DNA from: an uncultured archaeon
Lineage (GTDB): Archaea > Thermoplasmatota > Thermoplasmata > Thermoplasmatales > Thermoplasmataceae
NCBI GenBank assembly: GCA_000965745.1
Contig: CP009479.1
Coordinates: 1,376,001 to 1,440,000, forward strand
Reading direction: 5' to 3'
Length of the DNA stretch: 64,000 bases
The position numbers were made by a program, and so were the translations under genes. Each line of letters opens with the position of its first letter. The stretch's first letter is position 1. This document shows positions 22,951-29,159 of this stretch, in pieces. A model generated the notes under the pieces. It ran no database searches. It was not told the origin of the DNA and worked only from the letters and a program-made list of their open reading frames with translations.

Positions 22951-25900
22951 ATGATTGATATGATGATTGAAAGCCTTGAACTGGATAACTTCAAATCGTT
23001 CGGAAATAAAAGGAAGATTCTTTTCCGGAAAGGATTCACCGTCATAAGCGGTCCGAATGGAAGCGGCAAGAGCAATATAGGCGACTCAATGCTCTTTGTC
23101 CTCGGAGTCCGCTCTTCAAAGGCTGTAAGGGCAGACAGGCTTGCTGACCTGATACACAAGGCTTCCAGCCCTAACAGGCAGAGGGATACCTGCAAGGTCA
23201 CAATCACATTCAACAGTGAAAACCCGGAACTTTCAGAGGATGAAAAGAGGATCAGGCTCACGAGGGAATTGATTTCCGATACCGAAAGTTATCATTCAAA
23301 TTATTACATCAACGGGGAGAGGGTCAGGCACTCCGACGTTGAAAGGCTACTAGACTCACTGCACATATATCTTGACTCATACAGCTTTGTGCTGCAGGGT
23401 GACATCAACAACATAATAAAAATGAGCGGGATCGAAAGAAGAAAACTTCTTGAATCCATCTCCGGCATCGAGAGTTTCGACGTGCAAATAGACAAAGCAA
23501 AATCCGACATCGAAGCGATATCCGGAAACCTGACAAAACTCGAAATTATGCACGAAGAAGCCCAGCGACGACTGGAAGAACTCAGGATAGACAAGGAAAA
23601 TGCTGAAACTTTTAACTCCTATTCACAGAGAATAAAGGACATGAGGGCCACCCTTCTTGGATATGACCTGAACAGGCTGAACAGGGACGTTGAGTCAGTT
23701 GAGACTCAGATTTCCAGCCTTACCTCAGAGATTGACACTTTAAACCTTGAGAACTCAGGCCTCCAGGAAGATGTGGAATCAAAAAGGTCCACACTCAAAA
23801 AGCTCGAGGAGGAAAGAGAAGCGATCTCCGGTTCTGAGCTAGGGGAGATAAGGCAGCACATTGCGGATCTGAGGGTAAAAATCGCTGAGTTCAGGATGAA
23901 GAAGGATGACAGGGGCGAGCAGATCCACAATCTTCAGGAAGAGGTATCCAGCAGGGATAGCCAGTCCGAGGAGATCAGGAAAACAATTTCGTCCAAGAGT
24001 GATGCACTGGAATCCAGGGAGTCGGAACTCATGAGAATTCAGGACGAAATGAGGCGCATAGAAGAACAACTTTCCAAAATGAGGATAGAGTTCAGCGATT
24101 CCACAAAATCAGCAAAGAAGTTTCAGGAGAGGCTTGTGGAGATTGATGCAAGCATAGACAACATCAATTCACAGAACGATGCTGTCAGGGAGAAATATAA
24201 CGAACTAATCCAGGAAAAATCAAAGATCATGACTGAACTGGTCTCCCGTGAGGAAAAGAGAAAAGATCTCGAATTCCAGATTAAGGATGCCCAGTGGAGG
24301 CTTAAGGACATATCGGGAACCGACCAGACCAAGAGGAAGACGCTCCAGGACCTGAGAAAGCAGTACTATGAAGTCAAGAATGAGCTGGAGGAAAACCAGA
24401 AAGCAAAGGAAGCTGCCAAAGACAGGCTTTCTATCCTTTCAAGGGAATATGACAAACTTACCATGAGCATGCAGGGGTCAAGAGGCGCAGGATCGAGAAC
24501 CCTCTCATCAATCATAAACGCCAGAAACCAGAACATGATTGATGGCATTCATGGCCCCATCAGGGACCTCATAAGCTTTGATGAGAAGTACAGAAGTGCC
24601 GTAGAATCAACTGCAGGAGGCAGGCTTAACGCTGTTGTTGTTGAGAATGACCAGGTGGCCCAGGAATGCCTGGAATATCTGAGGAAAGAGAAGATAGGCA
24701 AACTTACATTTCTGCCGCTTAACAAGTTAAGTACAGGCCGGCCAAGGGGAAAGGCAATCATTGTGCATGGGTCAGACGGCTCACTTGGCTATGTGTTTGA
24801 GCATATATCATATGAGAGCGTATATGAGGCTGCTGTCTGGTACGCTTTTCAGGATACGGTTATAGTTGACACTGTCCAGACTGCAAGAAAGTACATGGTC
24901 GGTGTAAGGCTTGTTACCCTTGGAGGGGATATTTTTGAGGCAAGCGGCGCCATCACAGGTGGTTATAATGAAGCACGGAAGAGCAATGCCGCCACGGAAT
25001 CCAAATTATCACAGCTTTCCTCCGAAATTAACGGCCTCAATGAAGAATTAAGCATTCTGAACCCTAAAATAGAGGATGGCAAACACCTTGTGGACCAGCT
25101 TACCACAGAAATGACGGAACTTTCAAAGGAAGAAGGGTCAAAGACCAAAGAGATAGATCAACTCAGGGAGATAGCGGAGAAGGCGGAAAGACAGATCGAG
25201 GGGGTTGACTCACAGGTTGCAGAGTCTGAGGAATCCCTTCGAAAAACTGAAAACCACCTCAAGGCGCTCAATGAAGAAATGCTGGAGAACGGCGACAAAA
25301 TAGACCAGCTTTCAAAGGAGAAATCAGAAATCCATGAGAAGTTGAAATCCCTGTCTCCCGAAACCGTAGAGCTCCAGAGCGACCTGGAGAGGACTTATGC
25401 CTCACTAAGAACCGACGAGCAAAGCATGCTGGATGGTATTTCATCAACAAGATCAGACTTGAAACATATGGAGGGGGACCTCCAGGAAAATGCGAAGCTG
25501 ATAGGTAACAGCACCAATCAGATCGTCCAGCTGAAAGATGAAGTCAATGTCCTGCAGGATCGGATCTCTGAACAGAATACTGAACTTGAAAAATACAGGA
25601 AGATCGAAGAGGAAATGGACCAGAAGACAAAAGAGCAGACAGAGAAGATCCATGCAATAGAGAATGAGGTCGAAAGGATAAGCGGCAGGATGGAGGGAAA
25701 CAAGTCCCTGGTTTCAACAAAGCATGATGTCATTATCACTCTAAGCTCAAGGCTTGAAACTTACAGGACCAAAATTACGGAAATAGAGGAGCAACTGGCC
25801 GAGACCGGTGGAACTGCAATTCAGGAGAAACTTTCAATTACGGAAATAAAAGGCACGATAAGCGATCTTGAGAACAGGATTGAGCAGCTCGGGCCGATAA

Positions 25901-26499
25901 ACCACAAAGCGATTACTGAGTTTGATGAGGTTAGTGTTGAATGTTCAAACATTTCAGAGGAGATGACCAGGCTGAAGGAAGAAAAGAAAAGCCTTGAGGA
26001 TTTGACCGAGAAGCTAAACGAGCAGAAGAAGACAATTTTCCTCAATCTATATCACGCCATAAACCAGCACATGAACGAGATATACGCAACACTTTCGGCA
26101 GGCGGCGAAGCACAGCTGGTACTTTCTGATGAGCTTGACCCGCTGAACGCAGAAGTTTCTATCAGGGCAAGGCCGAAAGGGAGAAACTTCAGCAAGCTCC
26201 ACTCACTTAGTGGCGGGGAAAAGAGCCTGACTGCTCTTTCGTTTATAATGGCTGTTCAGAGAATAAACCCGTCCCCGATATACTATCTTGACGAGGTGGA
26301 CATGTTCCTTGACGGAGCAAACGTGGAAAGGATCGGCAAGATGTTCAAGAGCAACTCCTCAACTTCGCAGATTCTTGTTGTATCGCTGAGGAAAGCGATG
26401 CTGAAATATGCTGAAAACATCATCGGTGTCACAAGTTTCGACGAGGAAAACACTGAAGTATTCGAGAAATCTCTCGGGACTGAACCGGAGGTGTTCTGA
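22951..26499 (+). CDS. smc: Chromosome segregation protein SMC
   Basis: Walker A GPNGSGKS, coiled coils, hinge GIHG..DLI..GGRL, signature LSGGEK, Walker B YYLDEVD. Confidence 0.98.
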   Translation: MIDMMIESLELDNFKSFGNKRKILFRKGFTVISGPNGSGKSNIGDSMLFVLGVRSSKAVRADRLADLIHKASSPNRQRDTCKVTITFNSENPELSEDEKRIRLTRELISDTESYHSNYYINGERVRHSDVERLLDSLHIYLDSYSFVLQGDINNIIKMSGIERRKLLESISGIESFDVQIDKAKSDIEAISGNLTKLEIMHEEAQRRLEELRIDKENAETFNSYSQRIKDMRATLLGYDLNRLNRDVESVETQISSLTSEIDTLNLENSGLQEDVESKRSTLKKLEEEREAISGSELGEIRQHIADLRVKIAEFRMKKDDRGEQIHNLQEEVSSRDSQSEEIRKTISSKSDALESRESELMRIQDEMRRIEEQLSKMRIEFSDSTKSAKKFQERLVEIDASIDNINSQNDAVREKYNELIQEKSKIMTELVSREEKRKDLEFQIKDAQWRLKDISGTDQTKRKTLQDLRKQYYEVKNELEENQKAKEAAKDRLSILSREYDKLTMSMQGSRGAGSRTLSSIINARNQNMIDGIHGPIRDLISFDEKYRSAVESTAGGRLNAVVVENDQVAQECLEYLRKEKIGKLTFLPLNKLSTGRPRGKAIIVHGSDGSLGYVFEHISYESVYEAAVWYAFQDTVIVDTVQTARKYMVGVRLVTLGGDIFEASGAITGGYNEARKSNAATESKLSQLSSEINGLNEELSILNPKIEDGKHLVDQLTTEMTELSKEEGSKTKEIDQLREIAEKAERQIEGVDSQVAESEESLRKTENHLKALNEEMLENGDKIDQLSKEKSEIHEKLKSLSPETVELQSDLERTYASLRTDEQSMLDGISSTRSDLKHMEGDLQENAKLIGNSTNQIVQLKDEVNVLQDRISEQNTELEKYRKIEEEMDQKTKEQTEKIHAIENEVERISGRMEGNKSLVSTKHDVIITLSSRLETYRTKITEIEEQLAETGGTAIQEKLSITEIKGTISDLENRIEQLGPINHKAITEFDEVSVECSNISEEMTRLKEEKKSLEDLTEKLNEQKKTIFLNLYHAINQHMNEIYATLSAGGEAQLVLSDELDPLNAEVSIRARPKGRNFSKLHSLSGGEKSLTALSFIMAVQRINPSPIYYLDEVDMFLDGANVERIGKMFKSNSSTSQILVVSLRKAMLKYAENIIGVTSFDEENTEVFEKSLGTEPEVF

Positions 26500-27317
26500 T
26501 GGAAACGGATCAGGTGCTGAGAGATATAGTGGTCCAGGGAACCTTGCTTGATTACAACACCGATGTGTATGCATCCATAATGAAGAAAACCAAGGATTCA
26601 CGGGAATTCTCGGACCCTTTCGCCAGGCTTGTGGCCTCTACATTCAAGCTATGCGAGGAGGGTGTCATAGATCCGTGGAATGTTGATCTTCGAGGTTTTT
26701 CCAAAATATTCATATCAATAATTGACGAGACGTTCGATCGGTTTGGCATGGCTGGGTACCTGATAGGTCAGGCATGGCACATTCTTCTTGAAAAAACGGA
26801 AAGGTCCGTTATGAAGAGGCAGCAGCTGGAGGTCCCGGAAACCTACGTTGAAGAGGGCCCGGATGATGGGATGGAGTCTCCCGTGCTTGAATTTGAGCCG
26901 CGAGCCCTTGAGCTTTCTGAACCGGTCAAGCACAGGGAAAAGAGGCAGGTAATGCTTGTGGAACTGCTTGAGGCAATGCGTGTTGCGGTAAGGAAGGAGA
27001 GGAAGAGAGTTCACACAACCCGGCAGGAAAAGGAAGAATTTGACGCCACAGCCATGGAGGAGATAATATTCGAACTTCACGCCGAAGAACCTGAGAAGGA
27101 AATTGATAACACCTACGAAAAAATACTCTCGCAGTTCGCAGATCAGTTCTACATTGAAGAAATATGGGGAAGCAGCGTGGAGGACAGGTGGGGCTTTTTT
27201 GTATATTGCCTGTTTCTCATGAGGGAGAAGAGGATCATCCTGAAACAGGAAGGCGCTTTTGGGAAAATCTCCATCCAGCGTATCGCGAGGCCGGATGGGC
27301 AGGTCATCAACATTTGA
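26499..27317 (+). CDS. scpA: Kleisin ScpA
   Basis: IDPWNVDL motif; C-terminal F..CLFL..E..I.L.Q..FG.I winged helix; coupled to smc. Confidence 0.9.
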   Translation: METDQVLRDIVVQGTLLDYNTDVYASIMKKTKDSREFSDPFARLVASTFKLCEEGVIDPWNVDLRGFSKIFISIIDETFDRFGMAGYLIGQAWHILLEKTERSVMKRQQLEVPETYVEEGPDDGMESPVLEFEPRALELSEPVKHREKRQVMLVELLEAMRVAVRKERKRVHTTRQEKEEFDATAMEEIIFELHAEEPEKEIDNTYEKILSQFADQFYIEEIWGSSVEDRWGFFVYCLFLMREKRIILKQEGAFGKISIQRIARPDGQVINI

Positions 27318-27351: not shown

Positions 27352-27600
27352 ATGAAAGATGACGGCACCCTCAGTGCATCTGAAATATCCGAGTACTCAT
27401 TTTGCAGTGTGGCTTGGTACATGGATTCAAACGGCTATCCAAGGAGCACAATATCTTCCAAAAGGATGGAGAATGGCAGGAAAATGCACAAGAAGCTTGA
27501 GCCGAGGTACAAAAGGGTAAGCATTGCTGCCAGACTGTCGATTGCTGCCATTGTTCTACTTTCAATAATATTGGTGGCCTTTGCCGCAGGGCTGATCTGA
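27352..27600 (+). CDS. N-terminal fragment of a split Cas4-like nuclease with C-terminal TM helix
   Basis: SASEISEYSFC..AWY and G+xxH (GRKMH) match the Cas4 N-terminus; C-terminal about 22-aa hydrophobic helix. Confidence 0.75.
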   Translation: MKDDGTLSASEISEYSFCSVAWYMDSNGYPRSTISSKRMENGRKMHKKLEPRYKRVSIAARLSIAAIVLLSIILVAFAAGLI

Positions 27601-28116
27601 GTGGATGCTTATGAGATATACGCGATCCTCTTTCTTCTCATAATGCTCTTTGTGATAATGTCAGCCGTCCTTTCCCGCTCCAGAAAGAAATTTGCAATGC
27701 CCGATGGAAAGGCAGTATATGGAGACCTCATGGCTGAGGGGAAAATCCTGAGATCACGAAGGTACGGCCTAACGGGAAAGCCTGACAAGATTGTGCAGAA
27801 CGGGAAAGAAGTGGTGCCCTACGAGTACAAGTCAACAGATGCTGTAAGGCCCAGGGAGGGGCACATGCTCCAGATGGCCGCATACTTTGTGATACTGGAG
27901 GAGAACTTCCCGGGCTCAAAGGTTGAATACGGCATACTGAAGTACAAGAATTATGCATTCAGGATTGAAAACAGCCAGCGGCTCCGGGAAGAGCTCTTCA
28001 ATGTAATGGGCAGGATAAGGGGGAACCTTGGGATGCCTGAACCCAACCATAATAATCCGGGAAGGTGCGTATATTGCAGTTTCCGTGGAACCTGTTCAAA
28101 AAAGTTAATTAAATGA
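27601..28116 (+). CDS. cas4: C-terminal nuclease fragment of a solo Cas4-like PD-(D/E)XK protein with N-terminal TM helix
   Basis: LRS..YGLTGKPD, EYK, QMAAY, CxxCx5C; N-terminal hydrophobic helix. Confidence 0.85.
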   Translation: MDAYEIYAILFLLIMLFVIMSAVLSRSRKKFAMPDGKAVYGDLMAEGKILRSRRYGLTGKPDKIVQNGKEVVPYEYKSTDAVRPREGHMLQMAAYFVILEENFPGSKVEYGILKYKNYAFRIENSQRLREELFNVMGRIRGNLGMPEPNHNNPGRCVYCSFRGTCSKKLIK

Positions 28117-29159
28117 GACAGTATGTGCGCTGGTTCATGGATAAACTAGAACTCCTAGCCAGAAACATGGTGGAAGTGATCACGGAAGCTGAAGCCAAGG
28201 ACGCACTGGAATCAGGGAGGAACAAGGCATACATTGGTTTTGAGCCTTCAGGTCTGCCGCACATCGCCACGGGGCTCCTCTGGCCAAGAAAACTTAACGA
28301 TCTTATAGAGCTTGGGCTGGACACCACCGTACTCCTTGCTGACTGGCATGCCAAGGTGAACGACAAGCTCGGCGGAGACCTTTCCAGGATTCAGGAGAGT
28401 GGCCGCCTTCTCCTGAAGAGCATGAAGGTTATGGGCCTCAGCGACAAGGTCAAGTTTCTCTGGACAAGTGACATGGTTTCGGACCCGGAATACTGGAGCA
28501 CACTCCTAAACGTGGCAAAAACGGCCAATCTTTCACGCATAAGGCGCGCCCTGCCAATAATGGGAAGAACCGAGGAGGATGCGGACAAAGATTTCAGCAA
28601 GTACATCTATCCTCTAATGCAGGTTACAGACATTTTCTACATGGACCTGGATTTTGCTTTTGGCGGAATGGACCAGAGGCACGCGCACATGCTCGCCAGG
28701 GACGTGGCAGAAAAAATGGGCAGAAAGAAAGTTATATCTGTGCACGGCCCCCTCCTTGGAAGCCTTACCGGGACGGGCAGGATGGATTCATTCAAGAAGA
28801 TGTCAAAGAGCGACCCTAACTCAGCAATATTCCTTTTTGATCCTCCTGAAAAGGTGAGGTCCAAGATAAAGAAGGCATACTGTCCAATCAAGGAGGTAGA
28901 AGGGAACCCCGTAATGGACATAATACGACACATAATAATGCCGTATTATGGGGAGAACTTTTTGATACGTAGGCCTCCGCAGAAAGGTGGTGAAATTTCC
29001 CCAGAAACATATGGCGAGCTTGAGAAGCTATATGTCAATGGCGACATCCATCCGGTTGATCTCAAGAACGCGGTCTCTGACGCACTAAACGAAATGATAG
29101 CCCCGGCTAACAGGCTCGTCGAAAGAGAAGAGATTGATCTGAGCAATTTCCAGGTCTAG
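28113..29159 (+). CDS. tyrS: Tyrosine--tRNA ligase (start may be 28137)
   Basis: YIGFEPSG.PHIA, YPLMQVTD, GGMDQ, KMSKS. Confidence 0.97.
   Translation: MRQYVRWFMDKLELLARNMVEVITEAEAKDALESGRNKAYIGFEPSGLPHIATGLLWPRKLNDLIELGLDTTVLLADWHAKVNDKLGGDLSRIQESGRLLLKSMKVMGLSDKVKFLWTSDMVSDPEYWSTLLNVAKTANLSRIRRALPIMGRTEEDADKDFSKYIYPLMQVTDIFYMDLDFAFGGMDQRHAHMLARDVAEKMGRKKVISVHGPLLGSLTGTGRMDSFKKMSKSDPNSAIFLFDPPEKVRSKIKKAYCPIKEVEGNPVMDIIRHIIMPYYGENFLIRRPPQKGGEISPETYGELEKLYVNGDIHPVDLKNAVSDALNEMIAPANRLVEREEIDLSNFQV

Follow-up and report, generated by a model that had tools for sequence, protein, structure and literature searches.

Features of the gene pair

Two adjacent genes on the plus strand, at positions 27352 to 28116 of the window (the whole stretch of 64,000 nucleotides that was analyzed), encode the two halves of a Cas4-like protein. 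ORF1 (27352..27600, +) encodes the N half, a protein of 82 aa closed by TGA, in which Cas4 N-terminal helices are followed by a tail-anchor helix. It carries the first Fe-S cysteine, C18, in the motif SASEISEYSFC18 (27403-27405, +), the motif-I histidine H46 in GRKMH46 (27487-27489, +), and a membrane helix of approximately residues 57-82 (27520-27597, +), which is hydrophobic up to the last residue. ORF2 (27601..28116, +) starts with GTG and encodes the C half, a protein of 171 aa closed by TGA. An N-terminal membrane helix (residues 6-24; 27616-27672, +) is followed by D62 in GKPD62 (27784-27786, +), E75-Y-K77 as the E75-x-K77 motif (27823-27831, +), Q91MAAY95 as the Q91xxxY95 motif (27871-27885, +) and the three cysteines C156, C159 and C165 (28066-28068, 28075-28077 and 28093-28095, all +). 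A sequence-only reading had given the same ORF coordinates and the same residues (C18 and H46 in ORF1; KPD, EYK, QMAAY and C156/C159/C165 in ORF2), and all of these were reproduced from the sequence. Each of the two genes encodes a single hydrophobic span of about 22 residues, and the pair thereby departs from the "single soluble polypeptide" criterion of Cas4. The split, membrane-anchored Cas4-like gene pair as observed in the window is confirmed as real.

At the junction (27598..27603, +) the TGA of ORF1 (27598-27600) is followed without a gap by the GTG of ORF2 (27601-27603) in the same frame. ORF1 and ORF2 thus lie in one reading frame and are parted by a single TGA, a point absent from the earlier reading; a single point change at the junction would fuse them into a chain of 254 aa that is like the natural relatives with two helices.

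Membership in the Cas4 family

Cas4-family nucleases are soluble single chains in CRISPR adaptation and also occur as solo proteins. The C half of the pair alone scores above the curated cut-offs of PF01930 (36.5 bits, cut-off 22.7) and TIGR00372 (68.1 bits, cut-off 65). The N half alone remains below the TIGR00372 cut-off (20.8 bits, E 2.7e-4, profile positions 3-44) and covers only the first ~50 positions of the Cas4 and PDDEXK_1 profiles (positions 3-50); against three PADLOC Cas4 models it yields E-values of 2e-5 to 7e-5. The 254 aa obtained by reading through the stop span positions 1-246 of the 247 positions of PDDEXK_1 (E 6.3e-13) and reach 85.2 bits on TIGR00372 cas4, for which the cut-off is 65. 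In a PADLOC scan that covered the pair and the 272-aa protein encoded upstream of it, the pair was matched by Cas4 models only and the 272-aa protein by nothing.

Within an alignment of 14 relatives, C18, W22, G42 and H46 (N half) as well as D62, E75, K77, Q91, Y95, C156, C159 and C165 (C half) do not vary; the four cysteines C18, C156, C159 and C165 are likewise invariant in single-chain relatives. The RecB-like motifs of the pair (His, D, ExK and QxxxY) align with those of 8D3L, 4R5Q and 4IC1. With the full-length profile, C18 and H46 were aligned to the FQFC...EGQHLH segment of 8D3L; taken alone, the N-terminal segment matches solved Cas4 sequences weakly (i-E 0.071 for this alignment, and 29). 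A single-sequence phmmer search of the read-through product against the PDB produced spurious matches (influenza NS1) and a weak match to 7MI4 only, and the N-half profile searched against the PDB yielded helix and TM artefacts only. His62, Asp99 and Glu113 of 4IC1 bind metal (PMC13621843). Because C18 and H46 align to 8D3L, and because His62 of 4IC1 is a metal ligand, the N half would by homology supply one ligand of the cluster and one of the active site.

According to an alternative reading, the C half functions as a nuclease by itself, as a truncated solo Cas4, and the N half, incidentally co-transcribed, is a small membrane protein that either regulates it or is unrelated to it. The C half alone does exceed the Cas4 cut-offs, and, according to that part of the work of Rentz et al. 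2025 that is relayed in PMC13621843, a mutant of the M. mazei solo-Cas4 that had lost its Fe-S cluster stayed active. However, the N half aligns to positions 3-50 at the N-terminal end of the Cas4 profiles, its C18 and H46 are invariant, it superposes on the Cas4 N-terminus in the structure model described below, and it accompanies the C half at every complete locus examined. The reading in which the C half acts alone is considered highly improbable. That ORF1 represents the Cas4 N-terminus, a claim that the sequence-only reading had beforehand named as one on which it could fail, is upheld by both the sequence profiles and the structure superposition.

Conservation of the split

Since ORF1 and ORF2 share a frame, two rival readings of the junction arise, a pseudogene and a read-through product; the comparative data speak against both. 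Regarding the first, one gene would have been killed by a nonsense mutation; on this view the locus is in decay, and the TGA arose recently or through a fault in the assembly. The common frame and the single stop fit such a history, as does the restoration of a 254-aa chain by one point mutation. The independent assemblies, however, carry the same stop: three further soil-metagenome runs, of as many other studies, yielded contigs that span the junction with the TGA unchanged (one of them at depth 136), and the only differences across 901 bases of these contigs are at 27579 and 27684, both of them synonymous. The stop is also kept across members of the genus that are 61-72% identical and for which dS is saturated, and in other genera the gene is broken at the same place in other frames and with overlapping start codons.

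Matches were obtained in 24 of 41 related genomes. Canonical two-gene junctions were present in 15 of the 16 loci from the genome search (genomes of the same family) and in 50 of the 54 named loci from the scan of species genomes, six bacterial loci included. The gaps at the 50 named junctions were -4 (18 loci), -1 (11), +1 (11), 0 (6), -7 (2), +2 (1) and +17 (1), i.e., between -7 and +2 nt for all but one of the 50 loci that could be classified, and the 15 genome-search loci keep within these limits as well; the genes are adjacent and on the same strand, and all three relative frames occur. N halves at the named loci measure 80-93 aa and have one C-terminal helix, whereas C halves measure 163-187 aa and have one N-terminal helix. 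One bacterial C half among them is shortened to 103 aa, and one named locus is cut by a contig end. Three E-plasma-type loci (L008, L035 and L054, including the E-plasma scaffold) have CTGA at the junction instead of ATGA, TTGA or GTGA, and the C half of each is without a canonical in-frame start codon; in L008 and L054 a G7 run is located just upstream of the junction. This suggests that translation restarts at CTG, or else that a frameshift or a fault in the sequencing is involved.

Where computable, dN/dS was approximately 0.06-0.13 for both halves, with saturated dS and dN of 0.18-0.34 within the genus. Given the conserved junctions, the low dN/dS in both halves and the invariant residues, the locus does not behave like a pseudogene, and a recently inactivated gene is an extremely remote explanation. 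The split is a genuine design and not a lesion. The survey of homologue pairs that the sequence-only reading had proposed thus found the split to be conserved and purifying selection to act on it. The pair is missing from nine of the 24 family genomes searched and is hence dispensable.

The second rival holds that the stop is read through or recoded in this genus, the product being a single chain of 254 aa with a two-helix hairpin. A single in-frame stop is also found in three genomes of the same genus (61-72% identical) and in one other genus, and the in-frame geometry occurs in seven genomes altogether; the common frame leaves room for some read-through product, and natural single-chain relatives with two helices are scattered among the split forms in the tree. 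On the other hand, the in-frame stop is TGA or TAA depending on the genome, and the codon that follows it is always ATG, GTG or TTG, which read-through does not need. In the remaining family members the two halves differ in frame, and their junction is either an overlap (ATGA, TTGA, GTGA or TGATG) or a gap of 1 nt; most relatives are thus out of frame, and there read-through is impossible. A Shine-Dalgarno-like match precedes the start of the C half in 70% of cases as compared to 38% in control windows, a weak difference as the genomes are related. Read-through or recoding is considered very unlikely.

Membrane topology

In 49 of 49 pairs the side rich in lysine and arginine is the side of the soluble domain for both helices. 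The mean number of K+R residues flanking helix 1 in these pairs was 5.3 on the soluble side versus 0.12 on the other side, and that flanking helix 2 was 4.6 versus 0.04. Beyond the hydrophobic span of the N half there are 0-1 residues, and before that of the C half there are 0-6 residues (49 pairs). The number of helices at the insertion site of single-chain relatives is mostly 2, 4 or 8. On account of the charge bias in all 49 pairs, to which the mostly even helix counts add the same message, both soluble parts are predicted to be cytoplasmic, with nothing exposed outside. The sequence-only reading had demanded that the topologies of the two halves agree, and the location of both soluble parts on the K/R-rich side bears this out.

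The N half has the attributes of a tail-anchored protein, i.e., a single span at the extreme C-terminus and a soluble domain that is predicted to be cytoplasmic. ArsA/Get3 (PF02374) is present in the genome, but the control search matched in 14 of 14 reference genomes, so that its presence says nothing about tail-anchor insertion.

Fold and pairing models

The read-through product was modelled with AF2 from an alignment of 16 rows that included natural two-helix chains (an alignment of five rows gave a pLDDT of only 57.8). The resulting model has a pLDDT of 83.8 and a pTM of 0.77. In it, a helix of residues 33-78, which carries H46, runs into the membrane and is followed by a short turn, a return helix of residues 86-113 and then the beta-core. 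The top Foldseek matches of the model were all Cas4-family Fe-S nucleases. By VIA-align, residues 2-254 of the model superposed on residues 6-201 of the Cas4 of 7MI4 with Z 17.8 and an rmsd of 2.9 A over 174 aligned residues; the scores were Z 16.2 for 8D3L and Z 13.1 for 4IC1, and in these comparisons the model was covered from residue 1 or 2 to residue 253 or 254. Structural matches to Fe-S nuclease domains of the AddB, AdnAB, Dna2 and Exo5 type reached Z 9-12.6.

A two-chain complex modelled together with a 4Fe-4S cluster yielded an ipSAE of 0.86, as compared to 0.00 for the best of three controls; of the solved complexes, 58 of 80 attain this mark, as do two of 110 mismatched pairs. At least 90% of the contacts recur between the runs, and the pLDDT of the partner was 72-74. 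The contacts connect N-half residues 4-35 to C-half residues 132-167, and residue 67 in one helix to residue 17 in the other. The proposal that the two membrane halves pair into one nuclease is supported by this model. As single-chain Cas4 structures have already been solved, the pass may come from the model's memory of these; it speaks for likeness, not for binding.

Genomic context

A canonical cas4-cas1-cas2 module is located at genome positions 1251103-1253039, about 151 kb from the pair and outside the window; its Cas4 is 29% identical to the pair over 107 residues. A PF01930 search of the genome lists only this canonical cas4 and not the split gene. No tandem repeat array was found within the 64-kb window. 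The earlier statement that the window holds no CRISPR array, cas1 or cas2 was correct, the repeat scan being empty and the cas genes all located outside. The pair is not part of a CRISPR adaptation module and, being outside any cas locus, it qualifies as a solo-Cas4. Elsewhere in the genome, a second full cas1 is located at 2223667-2224611, and a third Cas1 match at 1601730-1601993, which is partial (26.6 bits over profile positions 35-125) and interrupted by a TAA, probably stems from a fragment of cas1.

The genes upstream of the pair in a probable operon (22951..27317, +) are smc (22951-26499, +; 1182 aa) and a gene of 272 aa (26499-27317, +), which overlaps smc by 1 nt and is separated from the N half by a gap of 34 nt. 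Downstream, a gene for a class-I Tyr/Trp-tRNA synthetase (aaRS; 28113..29159, +; PF00579, E 6.6e-44) has an ATG that overlaps the stop of the C half (ATGA). The order smc, 272-aa gene, N half, C half and aaRS has no exception among the complete Thermoplasmatales loci (16 of 16 and 46 of 46). The 272-aa gene had no match in Pfam, NCBIfam or PADLOC, and PF02616 (ScpA) had none anywhere in the 2.23-Mb genome. Because the 272-aa gene is kept next to smc in all Thermoplasmatales loci examined, in the usual position of scpA (kleisin), it may encode a divergent kleisin.

This arrangement raises the alternative that the pair serves as nuclease arm in an SMC-kleisin machine with a loose resemblance to Wadjet or Mks and would cut SMC-delivered DNA at the membrane in segregation or plasmid restriction. 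The contiguous genes, which overlap or nearly overlap, and their fixed order in all 16 and all 46 complete loci are in keeping with such a machine, and so is the lack of an ScpA family match in the genome. However, the linkage is confined to one family, within which aaRS, FEN1 and RadB genes are equally syntenic, and PADLOC assigns the 272-aa protein to no defence family. Split pairs of a sister family follow a DUF2240 gene and not smc, and bacterial pairs are found elsewhere, adjoining genes for MmeI-type R-M, AcrB, Fic or an RNA methyltransferase; further members are located near SSB, MCM, glycosylase or ribosomal genes. Moreover, one genome of the family (G009) keeps smc, the 272-aa gene and aaRS but is without the pair. 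Since the linkage stops at the family boundary and since this genome keeps the neighbors without the pair, an obligatory SMC partnership is unlikely, and the reading of the pair as an SMC-kleisin arm is rated as quite unlikely. Outside the Thermoplasmatales, the neighborhoods examined offered no conserved partner gene that would hint at a role; the neighbors vary widely.

Two of these loci show further details. In the sister-family locus L025 (2668-3156), the stop of the DUF2240 gene (E 1.1e-28) overlaps the start of the N half (ATGA); the DUF2240 gene of the genome to which the window belongs is located elsewhere, at 1545197-1545634. In G009, the spacer between the 272-aa gene and aaRS contains a frame of 89 codons (L101 2624-2893, -) that has a hydrophobic C-terminus but lacks Cas4 motifs. 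Either the remnant of an N half or a small membrane protein unrelated to it may be encoded there.

Distribution and single-chain relatives

The organism belongs to the Thermoplasmatales; the named relatives comprise MAGs of the Thermoplasmataceae and Thermoplasmata as well as E-plasma and Thermoplasmatales archaeon AK. A search of the genome for mcrA was negative, and the organism is therefore not a methanogen. The two-gene module is also found in the Planctomycetota (Tautonia sociabilis and Isosphaeraceae) and in a Defluviitaleaceae MAG, as well as on a conjugative plasmid of Singulisphaera acidiphila DSM 18658 and on Bacillus subtilis plasmids. A tblastn search of a phage collection yielded no match. 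Separate N-half genes of about 80-92 aa are called in public data, mostly as 'hypothetical protein' (e.g., in Cuniculiplasma sp. SKW3).

An exhaustive profile search returned 1871 cluster representatives at E-values up to 0.001. Regarding the best 150 of these 1871, the most frequent form was a stand-alone C half with one N-terminal helix (112; about 162-215 aa), followed by single chains with two helices (about 10; about 260-300 aa), with four helices (about 9; 322-357 aa) and with eight to nine helices (4; 534-596 aa), and by one soluble form of 198 aa. In the single-chain relatives of 534-596 aa, 8-9 hydrophobic segments are located between the Cas4 N-terminus and the core, and this membrane part is without a Pfam family.

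With 89 of 154 branches open, the nuclease-core tree has little resolution and permits no more than a loose conclusion, namely that split and single-chain forms are interleaved; its supported branches force at least five changes between the split and the single-chain state. Because of this interleaving and these forced changes, fission or fusion in the interhelix loop looks recurrent. Single-chain membrane Cas4-like proteins, from sister families of the same order and from metagenomic representatives, belong to the same subfamily as the pair and have the same invariant residues. Their helices are inserted at the same place as those of the pair, after the helix that carries the His and before the beta-core. 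They differ in that they form one chain with two, four or eight helices, whereas the break that separates the two halves of the pair falls in the loop from helix 1 to helix 2. No published description of single-chain membrane-embedded Cas4-like forms was found in open-access papers and preprints.

Comparison with known systems

Canonical Cas4 (PF01930 / TIGR00372 / COG1468; 8D3L, 7MI4, 4IC1 and 4R5Q) has the same fold as the modelled pair, to judge from Z scores of 13-18, and the aligned sequences point to the same His, D, ExK and QxxxY motifs and the same 1+3 pattern of cysteines for a [4Fe-4S] cluster. In contrast to canonical Cas4, the pair consists of two polypeptides, with a helix ending the first and a helix starting the second where Cas4 has a short link, and it has no cas1, cas2 or CRISPR neighbors. 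The pair resembles solo-Cas4 (Hudaiberdiev et al. 2017, PMC5704561; M. mazei Solo-Cas4) in being a Cas4-family gene away from CRISPR-cas; the described solo-Cas4 proteins, however, are soluble single chains, whereas the pair is membrane-anchored and split. The text of the Cas4 phylogenomics study (PMC5704561) mentions neither a membrane-embedded nor a split form. The Fe-S nuclease domains of AddB, AdnAB, Dna2 and Exo5 have the same iron staple as the pair, made of one N-terminal and three C-terminal cysteines. These are soluble domains of large helicase-nucleases in which the cluster is held within one chain, whereas in the pair it is predicted to lie between two chains. By every sequence and fold criterion the pair is a Cas4-family nuclease; it is two-subunit, membrane-tethered and not CRISPR-linked. 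No published description of a split or membrane Cas4 was found in open-access papers and preprints.

Proposed assembly and function

ORF1 and ORF2 are probably a translationally coupled pair that encodes the two subunits of one membrane-tethered nuclease of the Cas4 family (RecB-like PD-(D/E)XK, Fe-S). The tail-anchored N subunit would contribute the N-terminal helices and, with them, C18 as the first cysteine of the cluster and H46 of the metal site, and the C subunit, anchored by its N-terminal helix, would contribute the catalytic D62, E75-x-K77 and QxxxY together with the other three cysteines. The two helices may pair in the membrane in the manner of the hairpin of single-chain relatives, so that the cytoplasmic soluble parts would come together as an ordinary Cas4 fold on the inner side of the membrane and close to it. 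Two chains would thus contribute to the Fe-S cluster as well as to the active site, and for that reason neither half should work alone. The stop/start junction is expected to tie synthesis of the C half to translation of the N half, which would favor co-assembly.

The substrate would likely be DNA ends or single strands at or crossing the cytoplasmic membrane. A role on incoming plasmid or viral DNA, or on chromosomal DNA at the membrane, is a guess, offered as a tentative possibility. Plasmid-borne copies are found beside a MobF relaxase and a methylase, or beside a helicase and a toprim gene, neighbors that are compatible with, though no proof of, a function on DNA located at the membrane or passing through it. 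A more far-reaching reading, which we consider unlikely, takes the [4Fe-4S] cluster as a true inter-subunit staple, so that assembly at the membrane would hinge on cluster insertion and the enzyme would act as a gatekeeper, degrading or processing the strands of entering DNA (conjugative, viral or transforming); coordination with SMC may then occur in the Thermoplasmatales. If true, this would give the Cas4 fold a CRISPR-independent role that is sited at the membrane.

A widespread membrane-built subfamily, here cut into two subunits that would share cluster and active site, would represent a new way to localize and assemble a nuclease. It provides a natural test case for an iron staple between chains and for the co-assembly of a tail-anchored with a signal-anchored subunit, and a handle on what solo Cas4 proteins do. 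Since copies exist on plasmids of B. subtilis isolates and of S. acidiphila DSM 18658, the biology is testable in culturable hosts. On the B. subtilis plasmid NRS6116_2 (L106 348-5976), genes on the same strand encode, in this order, a helicase C-terminal-domain protein and two small hypothetical proteins, the latter of which represents the N half, followed by the C half, Hfq, a thermonuclease-family protein and one with a toprim domain. The run may be a DNA-processing cluster.
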